DNA of 64,000 nucleotides from an uncultured Acidobacteriota bacterium (GTDB lineage: Bacteria; Acidobacteriota; Thermoanaerobaculia; UBA5066; DATFVB01): positions 128,001-192,000 of the forward strand of contig CAWEYG010000005.1 of NCBI GenBank assembly GCA_963813155.1, written 5' to 3'. Numbering within the stretch: the first letter of the stretch is position 1; each line of letters begins with the position of its first letter. The notes under the pieces were generated by a model. The model was not told where the DNA came from. It saw only the letters and a list, made by a program, of their open reading frames with translations, and did no database searches. Shown in pieces: positions 25,361 to 40,470 of this stretch. Made by a program: the position numbers and the translations under genes.

Positions 25361-26703
25361 CGGGCCTTCGCGTACTGCGGGTTCTGGGCGCGAAGCGCCG
25401 AGACCGCGCGGACTACCTCGCCGATCGTGTAATCGACCTCTTCTTCCGTGTTGAATCGGCCAAGGCCGAACCGCACGGAAGAAAATGCGAGCTCGTCGGG
25501 AACGCCGATCGCCTTCTGCACGTGCGACGGCTCGATCGAGGCCGATGTGCATGCAACCGTGTAGTCGACCTCTTCCTCCGTGTTGAAGCGCCCGAGTCCG
25601 AACCGCACGGAGGAGAACGCGAGATCGTCGGGCACGCCGATCGCCTTCTGCACGTGCGACGGCTCGATCGACGCCGACGTGCACGCGGCGCCGGAGGACA
25701 CGGCGACGTCGCGGATGCTCGTCAGGAGCGCTTCTCCCTCGACGTAGCCGAACGAGAGATTGAGATTGCCCGGCAGGCGCCGTTCTTCGGACCGGAGATT
25801 TCCGTCGGCGTCGATCTCCGGAAGCAAGGCGCCGTTCAGGTGCACTTCGTCGAGCTGCGAGGTGATTCCTTCGTGAAGCCGGTTTCGCAGCCGCCGCAGG
25901 CGGGCTGTTTCCGCGTCGAATTCCGCTTTCGCGAGCTCGCACGCTTTCGCGAGACCGACGATCCCGGGGACGTTCAACGTTCCCGACCGAAGGCCGTGCT
26001 CGTGGCCGCCGCCGTAGAAAATCGGCTGAAGCCGGACGCGGGGATTCTTGCCGCGAACGTACAGCGCCCCGGCTCCCTTGGGTCCATAAATCTTGTGGGC
26101 TGTGATAGATACAAGGTCAGCATGAAATTCTTCCACGTGGAACGGTAGTTTTCCGACGCCCTGAACGGCGTCGCTGTGAAAGAAGACTCCGCGCTCCCGG
26201 CAGAAAGCCGCGATCTCCTGGATCGGATGAACCGTTCCGATCTCGTTGTTCGCGAGCATCAACGTGACGAGGATCGTCTGTTCCCGGAGGGCGCCCCGGA
26301 CCTGGTCGGCCTCGACCCTGCCGAATCGATCCGGCGAGAGGTACGTGACCTCGAAGCCTTCCTTCTCGAGCTCTTTGCACGAATCGAGCACGGCCTTGTG
26401 TTCCGTGAGGCACGTGACGATGTGGTTTCCCTTTTCGCGGTAAAGGCGCGCGACGCCGAAGATCGCGAGATTGTCCGACTCCGTCGCTCCCGACGTGAAC
26501 ACGATTTCTTTCGCGGAGGCGCCGAGGAAATCCGCCACCCTCTCCCGGGCCTGGTCCACCGCGGCTTCCGCCTCCCAGCCGTAAAGGTGATTGCGGGAGG
26601 CCGCGTTTCCGAACGACGTCGTCAGGTACGGCATCATGGCGTCCAGGACTCTGGGGTCGATCGGGGTGGTCGCGTGGTTGTCCATGTAGATCGGGGTTTT
26701 CAT
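25357..26703 (-). CDS. iscS: IscS-type cysteine desulfurase with internal 44-aa tandem duplication
   Basis: [44 protein letters not shown]. Confidence 0.92.
25423..25686. repeat. Tandem 132-bp diverged duplication within iscS
   Basis: 25555-25686 vs 25423-25554: about 16 nt differences by hand count, nearly all at third codon positions. Confidence 0.95.
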
Positions 26704-26763
26704 GTTCCTCGCTCCGGACGCGATTTTACGCCCCATTTTCTAAATGGTAATCTTACGCTTCAG

Positions 26764-28353
26764 ATGTCCACGGTCCACCTGCCCGAAGACAAGGCGTTTT
26801 CGTTTCTCTCCGCTCCGCCGCGGGTGCAGCTCTCCCATGCGTTTTCGAGGCCGTTCGAGAACGTCGTCGCGGCGGCGAGGACGTGTTATTCGAGCAAGGG
26901 TGTCATCGACGAGGACCAGGCATCCCGCAATCCGGAGCGCCGGGACGCTCTCGCCCGCTCGATCTACGCCGCCGGGCACCACACGACGTTCCAGCACGCG
27001 AGCTTTCAGTTCACGATGTCGAACGTTTCGCGCCAGTTCCTGTGGTCGTTCCTCCACAGCCATCCTTTCTACAATTCCGAGCAGGTTTCGCAGAGGTACG
27101 TGGAGGTCAAGGCGGGCAACTTCGCGGTCCCGCCGCTCTTGCCGCGGGACCGGGAGCTCTACGAGGCCTGCGCGCGGCTTCAGAACGAGAATTACGCGAA
27201 GCTCACTCGGCTCCTCGTTCCGATTTGCCGCGAGCGGTATTTCGAGCTCTTCCCCGGCCGACTGCGCGGCGACGGGCCTCAGCGCTTCCAGTCTTCGGTC
27301 GTCAAGCGGGCGCAGGAAATTGCCCGTTACGTGCTTCCCGTCGCGACGTTCGCGTACCTGTACCACACGGTTTCCGGGATAACGCTCTTTCGCTACCACC
27401 GGCTTTGCGAATCGTTCGACGCTCCGACCGAGCAGAAATACGTCGTCGGCCGGATGATCGAGGAAGTCCTCGCGTTCGACCCTCTCTACGCAAGCGTCCT
27501 GGAAGACCCGATCCCGCTGGAGGAGACGCCCGAGTACCTCGTGTTCGAGCGCCTCGCGAATCGGAGCTCCGGCTCGGCGGAATTCCGCCGCGAATTCGAC
27601 GCTTCGCTCGGCGGGCGAACGTCTCTTCTCGTCGACGCGAAGGCGCGCAACGAAGAGATCCTGGCGTCGTCCGTGCGAGAGGTTCTCGGCCTCGCGAGCG
27701 CGGAAATGACCGACGACGAGGCGATCGCGCTCTGCCTCGACCCGGGCAAAAACCGGCTGCTCGGCGAGACGCTGACGTTGACGACCCACGGAAAGCTGTC
27801 GCGCGCGATGTTCCATCCCGGTTACACGTTCCGCAAGAAGCTCTCCCACACGGCCGACTCGCAGGACCAGCGCCACCGGATGACGCCCGCCTCGCGCCCC
27901 GCGCTCGGGGCATACCTGTCCGACGAGCCCGATTACCTCGTTCCGATGCTCGTCGACGAAGTTCCGGAGGCCGCGGCGCTCTACCGTGAAACGATGGAAG
28001 AAACGTGGAACGCGATCGGAAGACTGCGCGCGGCGGGCGTCGCGGACGAGTTCGCGGCCTATCTCCTGCCCAACGCCGTGCCGATCCGGTTCACCGAATC
28101 GGCCGACCTGCTGAACCTCCACCACAAGATGGCGATGCGCCTCTGCTACAACGCGCAGGAAGAGATCTGGAAGGCGTCCGTCGAAGAGGCGACGCAGATC
28201 CGCGAGGTGAACCCGCGCATCGGCAAGTGGCTGCTTCCTCCGTGCGGCCTGCGCCACGCCGCGGGCGTGCGCCCCGTTTGCCCGGAAGGGGACCGCTTCT
28301 GCGGCGACATCGTGTGGAAGAAGGACTTGCCGGAGTACCGCCGCAAGCTGTAG
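26764..28353 (+). CDS. thyX: FAD-dependent thymidylate synthase (ThyX) family, tandem two-domain form
   Basis: AARTCYS, GHHTTFQH, VSRQ, EQVSQRYV, QEIARYVLP; second domain QDQRHRM, YLLPNA, RLCYNAQEEI. Confidence 0.8.
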   Translation: MSTVHLPEDKAFSFLSAPPRVQLSHAFSRPFENVVAAARTCYSSKGVIDEDQASRNPERRDALARSIYAAGHHTTFQHASFQFTMSNVSRQFLWSFLHSHPFYNSEQVSQRYVEVKAGNFAVPPLLPRDRELYEACARLQNENYAKLTRLLVPICRERYFELFPGRLRGDGPQRFQSSVVKRAQEIARYVLPVATFAYLYHTVSGITLFRYHRLCESFDAPTEQKYVVGRMIEEVLAFDPLYASVLEDPIPLEETPEYLVFERLANRSSGSAEFRREFDASLGGRTSLLVDAKARNEEILASSVREVLGLASAEMTDDEAIALCLDPGKNRLLGETLTLTTHGKLSRAMFHPGYTFRKKLSHTADSQDQRHRMTPASRPALGAYLSDEPDYLVPMLVDEVPEAAALYRETMEETWNAIGRLRAAGVADEFAAYLLPNAVPIRFTESADLLNLHHKMAMRLCYNAQEEIWKASVEEATQIREVNPRIGKWLLPPCGLRHAAGVRPVCPEGDRFCGDIVWKKDLPEYRRKL

Positions 28354-28430: not shown

Positions 28431-28973
28431 ATGGGCGCCCTCACAATTATCGCTGGAGAACGGCTGGGAAAGGCCACGCTGGCGAAACGACGGAAGCTAA
28501 GAATCAGGCTGGAGACGATCGACACGGCTGCGACCCGCCTGACCGGCGTTCGTAGAACTCAAGAGTACGCGACACACGTTGCAGAGATTGACGAGGTTCT
28601 TTTCGAATACGCCCGCGAGTCTGACTCCGACGAACGGAAGAATATTCTGCGGACGCTCGAAGAGATCGTCGAGGATGAACCGTTGGCTCTGCCGACTCAG
28701 AGCATCGAAGAATGGAGCGATCAGCTCTCGCCCGGTGACGTGCGGAAGAAGGGCCTGCGACTCCGCGGCGGACGAGAAATTCGACCTTTCCTGAAGAGAT
28801 ACTTCTCGCTCCGGGCCAGGTCGGGGATGCGCACGCAGGCCGACGTCGCGAAGAAGGCCGGTCTCTCACGGACTCACGTTGCCTCTCTGGAATCAGGAAA
28901 TCACTATCCGCAACAGAAGACGCTTCAGAAGCTGGCGAAGGCCTTTCGCGTGGACGTTACCGATCTGATGTAG
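28431..28973 (+). CDS. Protein with C-terminal Xre HTH domain
   Basis: LRARSGMRTQADVAKKAGLSRTHVASLESGNHYPQQKTLQKLAKAF. Confidence 0.85.
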   Translation: MGALTIIAGERLGKATLAKRRKLRIRLETIDTAATRLTGVRRTQEYATHVAEIDEVLFEYARESDSDERKNILRTLEEIVEDEPLALPTQSIEEWSDQLSPGDVRKKGLRLRGGREIRPFLKRYFSLRARSGMRTQADVAKKAGLSRTHVASLESGNHYPQQKTLQKLAKAFRVDVTDLM

Positions 28974-29357
28974 TCACCGCCACGGGGGCTGGCCGTCCGC
29001 CAGCGCTTGTTTCAGTTTTCGAATTCGATGATCTGCGCGGATTCGGTCCGCTTTTGAGATCGCGTTGGTCTTTTTCCAGAACAGGTCGACTACGTAGATC
29101 GTTTTCGATTTCTCGTGGATCCAGAAAATGGCTCGGAGCCAGCCCCGTTTTCCGATCGCAGGGTGCTCGACCCGGAGTTCCATTCCTTCCCCGCACGGCT
29201 CGATTTCCAGCTCGGAAGTATTCGGGTAGAAGTGCAGCTTTCTTACTAGTTTGATTCCTTCGCGGAGTTGATCTTCAGAAAGCTCCTTCGATGCCCATCG
29301 CTGGACTATTGGGAGAGGCAGAACAACATACTTTGCGTCCAGGGGATTCTTGTTCAC
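28974..29357 (-). CDS. RelE/ParE (Gp49/HigB-like) toxin family protein
   Basis: MELRV...WLRAIFW...IYVVDLFWKKTNAI pattern; 127 aa, basic. Confidence 0.7.
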   Translation of the reverse strand: MNKNPLDAKYVVLPLPIVQRWASKELSEDQLREGIKLVRKLHFYPNTSELEIEPCGEGMELRVEHPAIGKRGWLRAIFWIHEKSKTIYVVDLFWKKTNAISKADRIRADHRIRKLKQALADGQPPWR

Positions 29358-29837
29358 GACTCCGACGGTCCCCTCTTATTCGAGTTTGTGTACTCGTCGA
29401 CGAGCCGCTCCGCCTGTGAGGTCGCGTAGTACTGATCGCCTTTCTTGCCCAAATAACCCATGATGACCGCGCGACCGTACTGGGATTGAGCGGGAAGCTT
29501 TCCCTCTTTAGCATCCCGGAAGGCAGCGGTGATGTCCTTGAACCCAAATGTCTTGAGTTGCTTCTCCCTTTCCAGGTAAACCGCCAGCACCGCGATGCGC
29601 TTCGTCATTATTTTGTAGGCGAACTTCCGCAAGTATTCCTGAGGTGAGACGGGCTTTGAGAACATGGAGGCGATTCGCGGGGCGGTTCTTCGGCGCTTCG
29701 CCCCGTTCCTCCGCCTGAGGCTTTCCCCCGAAGGCGTCAAGGGCGTAAGTCAGGACGCGGAATCGGGAGGACTCGCTGAGCGGAGTGAGGATCTCGATGA
29801 GTTTCTTCAGAGCTTCGACTTCATCAGTAACATTCAT
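29354..29837 (-). CDS. Hypothetical protein, possible winged-helix C-terminus (frameshift near 29680-29720)
   Basis: MNVTDEVEALKKLIEILTPLSESSRFRVL joins PVSPQEYLRK...RIAVLAVYL...GYLGKKGDQYYATSQAE in another frame; GTGA overlap with the toxin gene. Confidence 0.55.
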
Positions 29838-29938
29838 AACATGGAAATAAGTATCATAAGTACTATGTACAGTCAAACTCGTGATCTGCTCGCCGGCGGA
29901 AGGGACATGCAAGAGAGAAATCGAGGATTCTCCGGCCC

Positions 29939-29968
29939 AAAAAAAAGGCGGGCCCTCGTGGGCCCGTT
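29939..29968 (-). terminator. Rho-independent terminator
   Basis: Minus strand: CGGGCCC-ACGA-GGGCCCG hairpin, then CC and T8. Confidence 0.85.
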
Positions 29969-29990
29969 TCGGGAAGGAAAGGAAGGATAC
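29939..29990 (-). ncRNA. Candidate sigma54-dependent small RNA (~52 nt)
   Basis: Between a -24/-12 promoter and an intrinsic terminator: GUAUCCUUCCUUUCCUUCCCGAAACGGGCCCACGAGGGCCCGCCUUUUUUUU. Confidence 0.6.
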
Positions 29991-30001
29991 CTACTAGTAC
30001 G

Positions 30002-30016
30002 GCAAAAGCCGGGCCA
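30002..30016 (-). promoter_or_regulatory. Sigma54 (-24/-12) promoter
   Basis: Minus strand TGGCCCGGCTTTTGC: TGGC-N7-TTGC with exact GG-N10-GC spacing. Confidence 0.65.
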
Positions 30017-30096
30017 GGTTTCGATTTCGTCTTTTCAGTAATTTAGGAACGTCAGGCGACTGCCGTTTTGGCGATTCAGGACAAATCGTCCGATTT

Positions 30097-31578
30097 TCAG
30101 ACCACCGCGATCTCGTAGTGGGCGGCCGGAAGGTTTTCCTCTTCGCGAATCTCGATCGACGCCTCGAGGTCCCGCTCGAGGCCGTCGAGAATTCCGAGCT
30201 CTCCGCGCAAGGCCTTCACGACTTCCGGCGTCGAGCGGACGAGAACCGTCTCACCCGGAGTGAGAGAGCCCGAGAGCTTCAGAATTTCGCGCCGGATCTC
30301 GAGCGCGACGGTGAAATCGTTCTTGACCCGGCCGTTGCCGCCGCAGCACGGGCACGACCGCGTGAGAACGCGCTCGAGCGAGGGTCGCGAGCGCTTGCGC
30401 GTGACCTGGACGAGCCCGAACTCCGAGATCTGCAGGATTTTCGACTTCGCCCGGTCCTTTTTCATCTCGGACTCGAACGCTTCGAAGAGCGTCCGCCGGT
30501 GCTCCTCGTCCTCGAGATCGATGAAGTCGACGACGAGGATCCCGCCCAGGTCCCGCAGGCGGATCTGGCGCACGATCTCCCGGACGGCCTCGAGGTTCAC
30601 GGCGAGCACCGTGTCTTCGAGGCTGTCTTTCCCGACGAACTTTCCGGTGTTGACGTCGATCGAGACGAGGGCTTCCGTCGGGTTGATCACGAGATATCCG
30701 CCCGATTTGAGCCAGACCTTCGTCTTCAGGGCCTTTTCGATCTCGGCTTCGACGCCGAATTCTTCGAAAAGGGCGTCTTTCCGGTGGAGCTTGACGCGCG
30801 GAACGACGGACGGCTCGGTGACGTGAAGAAAATCGACGATCCGCCCGAAGGCCTCGTGGTCGTTGACCCGGACTGCCGCCACGTCCTCGGAAACGAGGTC
30901 GCGCAGCGAACGAAGAAGGAGGTCCTGCTCGCCGTGGAGCAGCGCCGGAGGCTTGCTGGAGTGGGACCGGGAGAGAATCGACTCCCACAGGGCCGAGAGG
31001 TAGATCCGGTCGGTTTCGAACTCCTCGGTTCCCCTTCCCTGCGCCGCCGTCCGCGCGATGAACCCGCGGCCGCCGGGAAACGCCTCGAGCGCGGCCCGCA
31101 GCCGCTCCCTCTCGGGCTCGTCCTCGATTCGGCGCGAAATCCCCGCCTTCGACGAGAAGGGCGTGTACACGAGGAGCCGGCCGGGCAGCGAGATGTTCGT
31201 CGAGACGCGCGCGCCTTTGGCTCCCATCGATTCCTTCACGACCTGGACGATGATGTGCTGCCCTTCCTTCAGGAGCGTGTCGATCGAGACCGCCGGGCGC
31301 GCGGATTCTTCTTCGGGCGGTCCGTCGTCGTCCACTTCCCACTCTTCGCGGACGTCGGCGACATAGAGGAACGCGTCCTTCTCCAGGCCGATGTCCACGA
31401 ACGCGGCCTGCATGCCGGGAAGCACTCTCGATACCTGCCCGAGGTAAATGTCGCCGACGGAGCCCTGCTTGCGGGGGCGCTCGAAGTACAGCTCCGCGGC
31501 GCGGCCGTTCTCCAGGAACGCGACCCGGGTCTGGTACGGGTTGCAGTCGATCAGGATTTCGCGGACGGTTTCAGGCAT
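30097..31578 (-). CDS. rng: Ribonuclease G (Rne/Rng family)
   Basis: GDIYLG, PGMQAAFVDIG, IDVNTGK, RQIRLRDLGG; no long RNase E tail; follows rodA. Confidence 0.9.
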   Translation of the reverse strand: MPETVREILIDCNPYQTRVAFLENGRAAELYFERPRKQGSVGDIYLGQVSRVLPGMQAAFVDIGLEKDAFLYVADVREEWEVDDDGPPEEESARPAVSIDTLLKEGQHIIVQVVKESMGAKGARVSTNISLPGRLLVYTPFSSKAGISRRIEDEPERERLRAALEAFPGGRGFIARTAAQGRGTEEFETDRIYLSALWESILSRSHSSKPPALLHGEQDLLLRSLRDLVSEDVAAVRVNDHEAFGRIVDFLHVTEPSVVPRVKLHRKDALFEEFGVEAEIEKALKTKVWLKSGGYLVINPTEALVSIDVNTGKFVGKDSLEDTVLAVNLEAVREIVRQIRLRDLGGILVVDFIDLEDEEHRRTLFEAFESEMKKDRAKSKILQISEFGLVQVTRKRSRPSLERVLTRSCPCCGGNGRVKNDFTVALEIRREILKLSGSLTPGETVLVRSTPEVVKALRGELGILDGLERDLEASIEIREEENLPAAHYEIAVV

Positions 31579-32662
31579 TCGCGAACCGCCGGGCTTCGAC
31601 GCTCAAGATCAGGCCGATCGCGGCGAGCGTCGTCGCGACCGAGGTTCCCCCGTAGGACAGCAGCGGCAGGGGAATGCCGGTCGTCGGAAAGAGCCCGATC
31701 ATCATTCCGGTGTTGAGAACGACCGACGCGAACAGGCTCGAGATCAGGGCGAGCACGAGGAAGGCTCCGCCGCGATCGCGCGCGTGCGACGCGAGCCGAA
31801 GGCCGCGAAGAACGACCGTTGCGTAGAGGGCGAGCACGACGAGAACGCCCATGTACCCCCATTCCTCGGCCAGCACCGCGAAGATGAAATCGGTGTGGCG
31901 GACGGGGAGGAACCGCAGCTGGCTTTGCGTGCCGCGGCGATATCCCTTCCCGAAAAGGCCGCCGGATCCCACGGCGATCTTCGACTGGCGAAGCTGGTAC
32001 CCGGCTCCCGAAACGTCCGCCTCGGGATGCAGGAACGTCGTGATCCTCTGCCTCTGGTAGTCCTTCAGGAGAAACCACCCGACGGTGCAGGCGAAGAGGC
32101 CGGCGAGCAGCAGCGCGGTCCAGTATTGCCAGCGCATCCGTCCGAAGTACATCCCGACGAGAAGCATCGGCAGGAACGTCAGCGCGAGACCGAGATCCGG
32201 CTGAAGAAAAACGAGCAGGAACGGGGTCAGGACGATCGCGAAGAGCTTGAACAACGCGGCCGGGCGCAGCCGCCGGTCCTGTTCGTTTTCGAAAAGGTAG
32301 GCGACGAGCAGCGCGGTCGCGACCTTGGCGAGCTCGCCCGGCTGAAACTGGTAGCCCCCGACCCGGATCCAGGAGCGCACGTGGGCGATTTTCCGGCCGA
32401 AAGTCAGCAGGTAGACGAGGGGAATGAGCGAAAGAAGGTAGATCGGAAACGAGAATTTGAGGAGGACCCGGTAATCGAGCGCGAGCATGATGAGCAGGAG
32501 CGCGAGCCCGACCCCCATCCAGATCGCCTGGCGGGCGGTGAGGTCCGCGTTTCGTCCCCCGAGGGTCGAGGAGGCGACGAGAAGGAGACCGATCGAGAGG
32601 AGCGCGAGGACGGCGAGAAACAGGGTCATGTCGAGGCGCCGCCGCTGGAAGATCCCTCTCAT
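31571..32662 (-). CDS. rodA: Rod shape-determining protein RodA
   Basis: FQPGELAK, QPDLG, QSKIAVGSGG, HTDFIF, GIPLPLLSYGG. Confidence 0.95.
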   Translation of the reverse strand: MRGIFQRRRLDMTLFLAVLALLSIGLLLVASSTLGGRNADLTARQAIWMGVGLALLLIMLALDYRVLLKFSFPIYLLSLIPLVYLLTFGRKIAHVRSWIRVGGYQFQPGELAKVATALLVAYLFENEQDRRLRPAALFKLFAIVLTPFLLVFLQPDLGLALTFLPMLLVGMYFGRMRWQYWTALLLAGLFACTVGWFLLKDYQRQRITTFLHPEADVSGAGYQLRQSKIAVGSGGLFGKGYRRGTQSQLRFLPVRHTDFIFAVLAEEWGYMGVLVVLALYATVVLRGLRLASHARDRGGAFLVLALISSLFASVVLNTGMMIGLFPTTGIPLPLLSYGGTSVATTLAAIGLILSVEARRFANA

Positions 32663-38387: not shown

Positions 38388-38532
38388 AAAATGAAGAATA
38401 TCCGGGATTTAGTGTCGGTGCCTTATAACATAGCCCGATTCTGCGGGCAAACCGACCGATTTTTGCGATGCCCCGGGCGCATTGTTAATATATCAAGTTC
38501 GCCCCGAATCTCGGGAAGGAGAGGTTACCTCG

Positions 38533-40470
38533 ATGCTCAAAATGATGCGGCAAAGCTTTCGGCACCTCAAGTGGATCCTCTGGTTCGTCGTGTTCGTCTT
38601 CGTGGCGTTCATCTTCGTGAGCTGGGGAAAGGGCGGAATCGGCAACGATCGCGCCGCCAGCGGCGAGGTCGCGACGGTCGGCGGCGACAGAATCACCGCG
38701 GTCGATTTCAGCCGCCAGTACCAGCAAACCCAGGAGCGGTACCGCCAGATGTACAAGGACAACTGGACGCCGGCGCTCGCGAAGGCGCTCGACCTCCCGA
38801 ATCAGGTCCTGAACGGAATGATCGAACGGCGGATGTTGATCGACGCGGCGCGTCGAAGCGGCGTGCGGGTGAGCGACACGGAGCTCTCCGAGAAGATCCA
38901 GTCGCTTTCGGCCCTCCAGCGCAACGGCCAGTTCATCGGCGCCCGGGAGTATTCCAGTCTTCTGGCGGCCAACGGCATGACGCCGGACCAGTTCGAGCGC
39001 GATTTCCGCGACGACATGTTGATCGAGAAATACAATCGTCTCGTCGCCGCGAGCCTGATCGTGCCCGATTCCGAGGTCGAGAACCAGTTTGCACGCCAGA
39101 GCGAAAAGGCGAAAATCGACTACGTGTTGATTTCGCCCGACCACTTCGACGCGAACGCGGCTCCGACGGAAGCCGAGCTCCTGGCCGCCTTCGAGAAGAA
39201 CAAAGAACGGTATCGCCAGCCGGAAAGGCGCAAGCTCAAATACCTGCTCGTCGACGAAACCCGGCTGCGGGAAAAGATCCGGCCGACCCCGGCGCAGCTG
39301 CGCGCCTATTACGACTCCCACCCGAACGACTTTCCGGTGTCGGACCGCGTTCACGCCGCGCACATCCTCATCAAGATCGACCGGGATGCGAAGCCCGACG
39401 TCGACGCCGCCGCGAAGAAGAAGGCAGAAGATCTCGCGGCCCGGGCCCGAAAAGGAGAGGACTTCGCGAAACTCGCGGAAAAATACTCGGAAGACCCGGG
39501 GTCGAAAGATCGCGGGGGCGACCTGGGGCCGTTTGCGCGCGGCGCGATGGTGAAGATCTTCGAGGACACCGCCTTCTCCATGACCCCGGGACAAATCAGC
39601 GATCCGGTGAAGTCGCCGTTCGGGTATCACGTGATCAAGCTCATCGAGAAGCTTCCCCCCGGGAAACAGACATTCGAGGAGGCGGCTCCCAAGATCATCG
39701 CCTCTCTCCAGCAGAGCTCCGTGAAAGCGGAGGAGACGCGCCGCAGCGAAGCCCTCGAGAAGGCCGTCAACCGCAAGTCGAGCGACGAGGACCTCCGCAA
39801 GCTCGCCGACGACGTCGTCTCTTTCGACGCGACCGACTGGGTGACCGCGCAGTCCGTCGTGCCGGGCGTCGGGTACGCTCCCGGGTTCTCGAAGGCGGCC
39901 TTCGAGCTCAAGAACGGAGAGGTCTCGCCGCACGCGATCTCGACCCCTCGCGGTCCCGCCCTCGTGAAGGTCGCGGACGTGAAGGCTCCGGGGATACCCG
40001 ATTTCGCGGAAGTGAAGTCGAGGGTCGCGGCGGATGTGAAGGGCGAGCGGACGCAGCAGAAGGCCCTCGACGCCGCTCGGCCGATCGAGGCCGAGCTCCA
40101 GGGCGGGTCGACGCTCGAGGCGGTTGCAAAGAAATTCGGCGTGACGGTCCAGTCTTCCCCGGAATTCGCGAAGGGAGCGCCGGTCCCGGCACTCGGGAAC
40201 TCGGCGGCGCTCTCCGAGGAGGTCTTCCGGACCGCCGTCGGAAAACCGGGCGGTCCCGTGTGGGTCGGGCCGCAGGGTGTCGTGCTCTTCCGGGTCGCGT
40301 CGAAGAACGAGTTCGACCCGGCGGCATTCGAACGCCAGAAGGGAACAATTCGGGAGTCGATCCGGCAGCAGGAAGCGCAGAAGCTGATCCAGGCGGATCT
40401 CGCGCGGCGGCGCGCCGGGGAGAAGATCGTCGTCAACGACGAGCTCCTCGGGCGCTACAACGCGGGTTGA
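38533..40470 (+). CDS. SurA/PpiD-type parvulin peptidyl-prolyl isomerase
   Basis: N-terminal TM, SurA_N region, HAAHILI, FAKLAEKYSEDPGS..GGDLG, SPFGYHVIK. Confidence 0.9.
   Translation: MLKMMRQSFRHLKWILWFVVFVFVAFIFVSWGKGGIGNDRAASGEVATVGGDRITAVDFSRQYQQTQERYRQMYKDNWTPALAKALDLPNQVLNGMIERRMLIDAARRSGVRVSDTELSEKIQSLSALQRNGQFIGAREYSSLLAANGMTPDQFERDFRDDMLIEKYNRLVAASLIVPDSEVENQFARQSEKAKIDYVLISPDHFDANAAPTEAELLAAFEKNKERYRQPERRKLKYLLVDETRLREKIRPTPAQLRAYYDSHPNDFPVSDRVHAAHILIKIDRDAKPDVDAAAKKKAEDLAARARKGEDFAKLAEKYSEDPGSKDRGGDLGPFARGAMVKIFEDTAFSMTPGQISDPVKSPFGYHVIKLIEKLPPGKQTFEEAAPKIIASLQQSSVKAEETRRSEALEKAVNRKSSDEDLRKLADDVVSFDATDWVTAQSVVPGVGYAPGFSKAAFELKNGEVSPHAISTPRGPALVKVADVKAPGIPDFAEVKSRVAADVKGERTQQKALDAARPIEAELQGGSTLEAVAKKFGVTVQSSPEFAKGAPVPALGNSAALSEEVFRTAVGKPGGPVWVGPQGVVLFRVASKNEFDPAAFERQKGTIRESIRQQEAQKLIQADLARRRAGEKIVVNDELLGRYNAG

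Follow-up and report, generated by a model that had tools for sequence, protein, structure and literature searches.

A candidate small RNA gene with a sigma54-type promoter downstream of rng in uncultured Thermoanaerobaculia

Introduction

In the 64,000-nucleotide stretch of DNA from an uncultured Acidobacteriota bacterium that was analysed here (the window), the gene row mreB-mreC-(mreD)-pbp2-rodA-rng ends on the minus strand with the stop codon of rng at 30097, and beyond that codon lie a sigma54-type promoter element, a pyrimidine-rich tract and an intrinsic terminator. Do these signals belong to a gene of their own or to the end of the operon, and, if there is a gene, what would transcribe it and what would its product do? 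The original prediction, derived from the letters of the sequence, was a sigma54-dependent small RNA (sRNA) that represses mRNAs by pairing with their ribosome-binding regions. Our analysis indicates that the locus is very probably a real sRNA gene. The best explanation, which we put forward as probable rather than firm, is a gene for a trans-acting sRNA of about 52 nucleotides from an undescribed family that adjoins the 3' end of rng throughout one order; in this genus, transcription of the gene would most likely depend on sigma54, and the RNA would block ribosome-binding sites.

The window's genome (G000; 3.8 Mb, 66% G+C) was compared with the other two genomes (G001 and G002) of its genus, g1, which consists of three genomes only, with the sister genus g2, and with the second and third families (f2 and f3) of the same order. 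All coordinates are window positions unless a contig is named (C1, C2, C3 and C5 being contigs of G000).

Results

Organization of the locus

The elements of the locus, in the order in which they are read on the minus strand, are the following.

30097..31578, minus: rng, RNase E/G family, 493 amino acids (Pfam PF10150, 7.8e-98; NCBIfam Rne/Rng, 9.9e-144)
30088-30060, minus: genus-conserved upstream block CGATTTGTCCTGAATCGCCAAAACGGCAG, kept in G000, G001 and G002 despite a different upstream gene in G002
30046-30032, minus: A+T-rich conserved block CTAAATTACTGAAAA (CTAA.T.A.TGAAAA; −56 to −42), defined from the alignment
30022-29998, minus: GAAAC-N16-CGTA, resembling a promoter of the extracytoplasmic function (ECF) type and rival to the next element, which it overlaps; common to g2, and predicting about the same start
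30016-30002, minus: sigma54-type −24/−12 element TGGCCCGGCTTTTGC, with GG and GC at the exact sigma54 spacing
29990-29939, minus: predicted 52-nucleotide transcript, CU-rich and unpaired in its 5' part and ending in a terminator hairpin with a U tail (from the fold and from covariance-model matches in relatives)
29989-29971, minus: seed UAUCCUUCCUUUCCUUCCC, invariant between G000 and G002, with one extra C in G001
29966-29939, minus: intrinsic terminator from the terminator scan, with stem CGGGCCC/GGGCCCG (29966-29949), loop ACGA, CC, and T8 (29946-29939)

Taking the C of the GC at 30002 as position −12 places the predicted start of transcription near 29990 and gives an RNA of about 52 nucleotides, whose 5' end is thus set by promoter geometry only. 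The predicted start is followed by GTATCCTTCCTTTCCTTCCC, which contains a 17-base pyrimidine run (29987-29971), and the centroid fold of the 52-nucleotide RNA consists of about 25 unpaired bases and then the terminator hairpin, with 7 G-C pairs in its stem; a longer RNA extending upstream folds no better than shuffled sequences (z −0.53). Pyrimidine runs of at least 10 bases combined with a terminator-like hairpin and a T run occur at 9 places in G000, and the run is longest at the window locus. An RNA hairpin in the promoter block, CGGC-UUUU-GCCG, was considered as an alternative to a promoter and rejected, since the change in G002 breaks a pair without compensation.

There is no ATG or GTG codon in the 52-nucleotide RNA and its sole TTG starts within the U tail; Pfam gives no match for the 125-amino-acid open reading frame (ORF) that the other strand contains at 29664-30041. 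The original claim that no ORF fits is therefore borne out, and all the elements that it had listed (a palindrome, an A+T-rich spacer, the −24/−12 motif, the seed, the GC hairpin and U8) were recovered at their predicted positions. Because the terminator scan detected no convincing terminator between the rng stop codon and the sRNA, the terminator at 29966-29939 probably has to end the mre-rng transcript as well.

Conservation of the unit within the genus

The stretch is present in both other g1 species, with 91% identity in G001 and 81% in G002. About 150 bases, comprising the upstream blocks, the promoter, the seed and the terminator, align among the three genomes, beginning with CGATTTGTCC about 98 bases 5' of the start and stopping where the T run ends; the flanks do not align. 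The promoter, the CU-rich 5' stretch and the terminator are thus conserved together in all three genomes, and the locus does not correspond to the case, raised together with the original prediction, of a plain operon terminator in which nothing else is kept.

The unit has different neighbours in different genomes. In G001, it is flanked by rng and a convergent Thy1-domain gene. The Thy1 gene also flanks the unit in G002, but there rng is absent from the 3-kb locus and the other neighbour is an unrelated divergent gene of 306 amino acids. In G000, the unit and the Thy1 gene are separated by an inserted island of small ORFs, among them those for a Gp49-like and a helix-turn-helix protein. In another genome, G048, the unit is located on the strand opposite rng and is convergent with it.

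An undescribed RNA family within one order

We searched with two covariance models, R1, built from the three g1 sequences, and R2, built from 11 sequences. R1 yielded weaker full-length matches in g2 and f3, recovering all three unit-carrying g2 genomes, and R2 matched at full length in 17 of 17 sampled f3 genomes (16 at E <1e-9; the seventeenth, the unpublished G008, weakly at E 2e-5) and in two of the three sampled genomes of family f1. Beyond the order, R2 gave marginal matches only, and by these searches G000 itself carries a single copy. Partial R2 matches in f2 were rejected as family members: they lie at other loci and look like plain terminators.

The f3 RNA starts with CAGCACGCGAUACCUUCCUUCC and then runs directly into the terminator. 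The 22-mer CAGCACGCGATACCTTCCTTCC, which is the f3-type 5' end, occurs exactly at 85 loci of a species-representative genome collection, all of them in metagenome-assembled genomes (MAGs) titled Thermoanaerobaculia or Acidobacteriota. When 16 loci were searched for the unit, 11 held it; rng adjoins it in 10 of these 11, and in 9 the unit lies downstream of rng in the same direction. Pairing in the terminator helix reaches 99.7% across 85 distinct family members, with changes on both sides in 3 of the 7 pairs, although these figures are biased towards the structure by an alignment that was fitted to the model; read with this bias in mind, the aligned sequences support the predicted helix by covariation.

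Rfam 15 found only two tRNAs in the window (best local match E 0.31, far below the gathering threshold) and nothing relevant in the loci of eight relatives, and in the literature searched we found neither such an RNA in Acidobacteriota nor any small RNA described for Thermoanaerobaculia. In agreement with the original statement that no RNA of this kind was known from the lineage, the sRNA family is previously undescribed; it belongs to one order of Thermoanaerobaculia (Acidobacteriota).

Sigma54-type promoters in g1 and f2

Sigma54 promoters share the consensus TGGCAC-N5-TTGC(A/T), in which the GG at −24 and the GC at −12 are exactly 10 bases apart. The strict motif TGGC..G....TTGC occurs once on the two strands of the 64-kb window and 16 times in the 3.8-Mb genome. 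Genome-wide, 161 sites match at least 10 of the 12 consensus positions, and 26 score 11, so that the −24/−12 match alone is not significant on this scale and the case rests on position and conservation.

The motif is kept in all three g1 genomes, with changes only at the variable positions of TGGCC[C/T]G[G/A]C. Within the 16-base stretch 30017-30002, between the GAAAC and the CGTA, a single position of 16 differs between G000 and G002; in the control, the spacer of the ECF-type promoter at a second sRNA-like locus (see below), 7 of 17 positions differ in the same pair of genomes. Canonical TGGCAC-N5-TTGCT promoters precede genes elsewhere in G000, and the genome encodes rpoN (PF04552, 1e-66) and hfq (PF17209, 3.8e-14), both of which the original prediction had named for confirmation. 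It also contains 26 matches to the enhancer-binding-protein domain PF00158, 16 of them full-length and better than 1e-60, and about 20 genes for such proteins are present. The sequence features of the sRNA, their conservation and synteny, and these rpoN, hfq and enhancer-binding-protein genes are direct observations.

Two other sigma54-type promoters of G000, at C3:3383 (plus strand) and C3:355336 (minus strand), lie ahead of small genes with strong ribosome-binding sites, whose products begin with MGNDVRIKL and MANDVRIKL. One of these genes adjoins an enhancer-binding-protein gene, and a similar gene in G010 starts MANEVKIKL.

A comparable arrangement occurs in f2. Downstream of rng in five f2 genomes, three (all of genus g3) have a CU-rich RNA and a terminator after TGGCA[C/T]G-N4-GTGC; in the two others, both of g9, this place is taken by another gene. 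BLAST within f2 placed the unit in 16 of 63 genomes (13/29 in g3, 2/8 in g9 and 1/17 in g13); from this we derived a set of 17 copies by dropping the g13 row, a 39-base terminator-only match, adding G019 through synteny and counting two copies in G123. All 17 of these rng-adjacent copies carry TGGCA[C/T]G-N4-[G/A]TGC, in which positions 1-5 (TGGCA) and 13-15 (TGC) are the same throughout and the bases between them vary, and the conserved RNA start GCGCAC follows 12-14 bases after the −12 GC. By its sequence, the f2 arrangement is textbook sigma54. Given that rpoN is found in 40 of 41 relatives, the class of promoter does not track the presence of rpoN.

The f2 loci also contain a perfect dyad, GCGCCG-WTT-CGGCGC (GCGCCGWTTCGGCGC), 8-9 bases 5' of the TGGC, which is unusually near for an enhancer. 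The dyad could bind a repressor or, as RNA, form a hairpin where rng ends.

Judged from motif, position and conservation, we consider it rather probable that the sRNA is driven by sigma54 in g1. The original claim of a sigma54-driven sRNA thus stands in part: the retention of the motif in g1, the parallel in f2 and the presence of rpoN speak for it, and the ECF-type promoter of the g2 and f3 orthologues, together with the ECF-like overlap in the window, speaks against it. Sequence comparison suggests that the sigma54 reading probably holds for g1; it has a clear parallel in f2 and does not extend to the whole family.

ECF-type promoters in g2 and f3

All 77 unique f3 loci share G[G/A]AAT, a variable 18-base spacer, an invariant GTT and 10 variable bases leading to the conserved RNA start. 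Promoters of this type, with GGAA(T/C) at −35 and GTT at −10, have been described for SigH, an ECF sigma factor of Corynebacterium glutamicum (PMC6338062). The g2 orthologues carry GAAAT-N18-GTT in three of three genomes and also keep GAAAC-N16-CGTA. The window does not fit the f3 consensus: GAAAT followed by N18 leads to TTG and not GTT, the GAAAT is displaced by two bases, and G002 has no GAAAT. Of the 27 bases AAACC...CCGTACTA, five distinguish G000 from g2: both Gs of the −24 GG, the TG within the −12 TTGC, and the first base of the ECF GTT.

Elsewhere in G000 (C1:451379-451494, minus strand), AAAC-N17-CGTAGA precedes the seed GAUCUCCUCCUCCUUCCC of a second CU-rich sRNA-like locus; the seed is similar to the 16S anti-Shine-Dalgarno tail and is followed by a GGGCCGC/GCGGCCC hairpin and T6. 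This locus is kept in G001 and in G002, where the terminator is duplicated, and similar loci occur in G004, G014 and G040 (genera g2 and g5). Since this locus and the similar g2 and g5 loci carry promoter-like motifs of the AAAC...CGTA kind, such promoters are plausibly used in G000. BLAST matches to the second locus outside the genus were mostly pyrimidine tracts in coding regions and were set aside.

Upstream elements

Sigma54 promoters are served by an upstream activator site, often with an IHF site between the activator site and the promoter. The original prediction had drawn attention to a GGAC-N5-GTCC palindrome (GGACGATTTGTCC), which is indeed present at 30091-30079 on the minus strand. 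Its left half is lost in G002 and the motif occurs 250 times in the G000 genome; being neither conserved nor rare, it is not a credible activator site, and we rejected it as the enhancer. The conserved CGATTTGTCC..ATCGCCA-WWW-CGGCAG spans −98 to −70 and includes, at −84 to −70, the dyad-like TCGCCA-WWW-CGGCAG, a candidate activator site that by eye resembles the f2 dyad at a different distance from the promoter. On its own, CGATTTGTCC is found 6 times genome-wide, against about 4 expected by our own estimate from base composition. The reverse complement of CTAAATTACTGAAAA, TTTCAG-TAAT-TTA, is one mismatch from the IHF consensus WATCAR-N4-TTR, and G002 has TTTCAA-TGAG-TTA, with changes at degenerate positions; this block is a candidate DNA-bending site.

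Seed and predicted targets

The description of the seed as resembling an anti-Shine-Dalgarno sequence proved apt, as the seed has UCCUUUC in common with the 16S 3' tail (GGAUCACCUCCUUUCU). The longest complement of the seed elsewhere in G000 is the 16-base AAGGAAAGGAAGGAUA (C2:475977-475992), which pairs with 29989-29974. It covers the Shine-Dalgarno region of a 96-amino-acid PF00216 (HU/IHF-family) gene and ends 6 bases before the ATG; the best NCBIfam match of this gene is IHF-alpha, below the cut-off. The PF00216 leader ranks fourth of 2,856 crudely called ribosome-binding windows, with −29.7 kcal/mol compared to a mean of −13.9 (standard deviation 4.5). The AAGGAAAGGAAGGAUA site is identical in all three congeners, and because both partners are invariant in g1, the conserved pairing provides no test by covariation.

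In five f3 genomes, a scan for seed complements with at most 3 mismatches yielded about twice the control count, and no start-codon site was common between these genomes. Duplexes with the start regions of rng, rodA, pbp2, mreD and mreC showed nothing notable (best −17.9 kcal/mol). The traits of an Hfq-type sRNA are present, namely a predicted unpaired seed, an intrinsic terminator with a U tail and an hfq gene.

The best duplex energy with the seed, −30.6 kcal/mol, was obtained at about 38503-38547 on the plus strand of the window (C5:166533), before a 645-amino-acid frame some 8.5 kb from the sRNA. In G040, the terminator after the HU/IHF-family orthologue (C4:253557-253596 of that genome) is similar to that of the window sRNA (41 bases at 83%, E 7e-4), a likeness that G+C-rich terminators probably show by chance.

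Discussion

What follows on transcription with its sigma factor and activator, on the 5' end of the RNA, and on how and on which targets the RNA acts is inferred from the features described above. Sigma54 RNA polymerase would transcribe the sRNA from TGGCCCGGCTTTTGC, starting near 29990, upon activation by a putative enhancer-binding protein at the conserved block around −84 to −70 or further upstream, which a bend at the A+T-rich block may assist, and transcription would stop at the terminator that is common with the mre-rng operon. The unpaired CU-rich 5' 20-25 bases, which are like the 16S anti-Shine-Dalgarno tail, would pair with purine-rich ribosome-binding regions and block initiation, with Hfq probably bound to the terminator and the U tail; the strongest predicted target would be the mRNA of the HU/IHF-family nucleoid protein. 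Action by pairing at ribosome-binding sites is, in our view, the probable mode, although we hold to it with reserve. As to the HU/IHF-family gene, we consider it a possible but doubtful target, more apt to be wrong than right.

A number of observations weigh against this reading of the locus. The organism is known solely from MAGs, and among the 20 sequencing runs containing the window region 29400-31600 there were no RNA-type runs, all 20 being DNA-type soil or rhizosphere metagenomes; a metagenome scan for further copies of the genus-type sRNA returned a single match, which on alignment was a chance match outside the pattern. Two of the three g1 genomes are 91% alike, so that conservation within the genus rests essentially on one comparison. 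On the general consensus, which agrees with the genome's own best sites, TGGCCCGGCTTTTGC scores 10 of 12 and the 26 best sites score 11; the best sites are mostly TGGCAC...TTGCT, whereas the window site is TGGCCC...TTGCC. A comparison of 12-mers of the upstream block with the regions 5' of 160 sigma54-like sites gave nothing beyond 11/12 except the locus itself, and no enhancer-binding-protein gene was found on the window's contig. The orthologues in g2 and f3 lack the GG/GC and have G[G/A]AAT-N18-GTT instead, and the −24/−12 element overlaps GAAAC-N16-CGTA, which resembles the AAAC-N17-CGTA promoter of the second locus. Neither R1 nor R2 detects the f2 units, which were found by synteny and by BLAST within f2; their orthology to the window RNA rests on position, size and architecture. 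With regard to targets, the longest complements of nine control seeds were 11-15 bases, two of the nine reaching 15, and three other ribosome-binding windows score as well as or better than the PF00216 leader. The leaders of the PF00216 orthologues in g2, f2 and f3 pair weakly, by eye, with their own sRNAs, so the HU/IHF-family gene is a candidate target for genus g1 only and was rejected as a family-wide target.

The same sRNA could instead be transcribed in g1 by an ECF-type sigma factor from GAAAC-N16-CGTA, with the −24/−12 element being either coincidental or a second, conditional promoter. The sharp f3 logo, in which the spacer is variable in sequence and the distance to the RNA start fixed at 10 bases, the retention of both motifs in g2, and the AAC-N17-CGTA that precedes the second sRNA-like locus in G000 and its relatives all point in this direction, as does the likeness to the documented SigH promoters; moreover, the sigma54 and the ECF readings predict the same start. 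The window, however, departs from the pattern: the GTT is replaced, the GAAAT is shifted by two bases and lost in G002, the spacer is N16 whereas the other AAC...CGTA promoters have N17, and G002 has AAAAC where the window has GAAAC. In addition, ECF spacers vary freely whereas the window stretch is almost invariant, the conserved upstream blocks of g1 reach to about −98 whereas ECF promoters need none, and in f2 rng-adjacent sRNAs of the same order appear to be driven by sigma54 promoters. On this evidence, we regard transcription by an ECF sigma factor as unlikely, albeit well worth keeping in view. It is also conceivable that both promoters may be used at the window sRNA, by analogy with glmY, at which a sigma54 promoter and an overlapping sigma70 promoter initiate from one start (PMC3045617).

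Other alternatives question whether there is a gene, or whether its product pairs with mRNAs. Under the former, the locus would be the untranslated 3' end of the mre-rng operon together with its terminator, and a small RNA would arise only through processing. The absence of a convincing terminator between rng and the unit, and the position of the unit in 9 of 11 loci, are what one would cite in its favour; but the whole unit is kept in G002 with no rng upstream and lies on the strand opposite rng in G048, promoter-like motifs with the correct geometry are conserved just 5' of the RNA start in all three families, and, in contrast to the constant RNA, the bases that separate its start from the promoter vary. 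We find this alternative very unlikely. Under the latter, the RNA would be real, and its invariant 5' part might serve as a protein-binding site or a sponge, for instance of a pyrimidine-binding factor or, in view of how conserved the neighbourhood is, of RNase G itself. Such a role might account for a 22-base 5' end that is identical at 85 loci and exceeds the need of a typical 7-10-base seed, for the linkage to rng across three families and for the lack of a target common to different lineages. Against this, the architecture and composition match those of base-pairing sRNAs, the seed differs among g1, g2, f2 and f3 yet stays CU-rich, which fits drifting target sets better than a fixed protein site, and there is no complementarity to the operon's own start regions; we therefore attach very little credence to it.

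A broader evolutionary scenario can be sketched for the sigma54-driven, base-pairing sRNA. The orthologous sRNA would have been rewired from one promoter class to another, unrelated one inside one order, with sigma54 promoters in f2 and g1, ECF promoters in f3 and g2, and five point changes separating g1 from g2 in the 27-base scaffold, and the g1 RNA would repress the HU/IHF-family protein and so form a negative feedback. Proteins of the HU/IHF family are the kind that sigma54 promoters need for DNA bending. The scenario as a whole is speculative, and we consider it improbable.

Among known systems, GlmY and GlmZ are about 150-200 nucleotides long and act through RapZ and glmS, whereas the window RNA is predicted to have about 52 nucleotides and a CU-rich seed. 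They show no sequence or structure similarity to the window RNA, which has no Rfam match, and the second promoter class is sigma70 there and ECF here. The resemblance lies in regulation. These sigma54- and GlrR-dependent sRNAs of Enterobacteriaceae have a sigma54 promoter with upstream activator sites and an IHF requirement; in some species a promoter of another class overlaps it and begins at the same base, whereas other species have replaced it (PMC3045617). The window locus likewise combines two candidate promoters that overlap and predict a single start, and orthologues of its RNA carry another class of promoter. With the Qrr sRNAs, the window RNA as predicted has in common a short trans-acting design, a −24/−12 promoter and an intrinsic terminator. 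The Qrr sRNAs, found in Vibrio, depend on sigma54, LuxO and Hfq and are short and trans-acting, with a −24/−12 promoter and an intrinsic terminator; they have several stem-loops and occur in multiple copies, in contrast to the single hairpin and the one copy found here, and again there is no Rfam match.

ECF-dependent sRNAs include the sigmaE-dependent MicA, RybB and MicL and the sigmaT-dependent GsrN. The f3 and g2 orthologues resemble these in their ECF-type −35 and −10 elements, and MicL also in a terminator that is common with the upstream gene, but the RNAs are not homologous and the window misses the f3 ECF consensus. RsaE/RoxS, AbcR and CcsR are sRNAs with CU-rich or C-rich seeds that occlude Shine-Dalgarno regions, and the likeness to the window RNA consists in an unpaired pyrimidine-rich seed complementary to purine-rich ribosome-binding regions. 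Their seeds are mostly in hairpin loops, compared to a linear 5' end here; they come from other lineages, and the window RNA has no match to them in Rfam.

Thermoanaerobaculia are abundant soil bacteria that are almost wholly uncultured, and the family described here extends over well over 100 species-level genomes. Because it is order-wide and has clear promoters, it could be used in soil metatranscriptomes as a marker for stress signalling through sigma54 and ECF sigma factors. For the study of how the input signal of an sRNA can change with its body left intact, the family is also a natural example; to our knowledge, GlmY/GlmZ is the only well-studied parallel.

Neighbouring genes

The island of small ORFs that separates the sRNA terminator from the Thy1-domain gene occupies 28431-29912 of the window and is missing at the same place in G001. 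A Gp49-like (PF05973) ORF and an HTH_3 ORF within it resemble a pair of the toxin-antitoxin type, and a promoter region rich in A+T lies at about 29840-29900. The Thy1 (ThyX) ORF itself (26176-28353, plus strand) is unusually long, with 725 amino acids and two Thy1 stretches, and is convergent with the sRNA, to which it stays linked in family f1.

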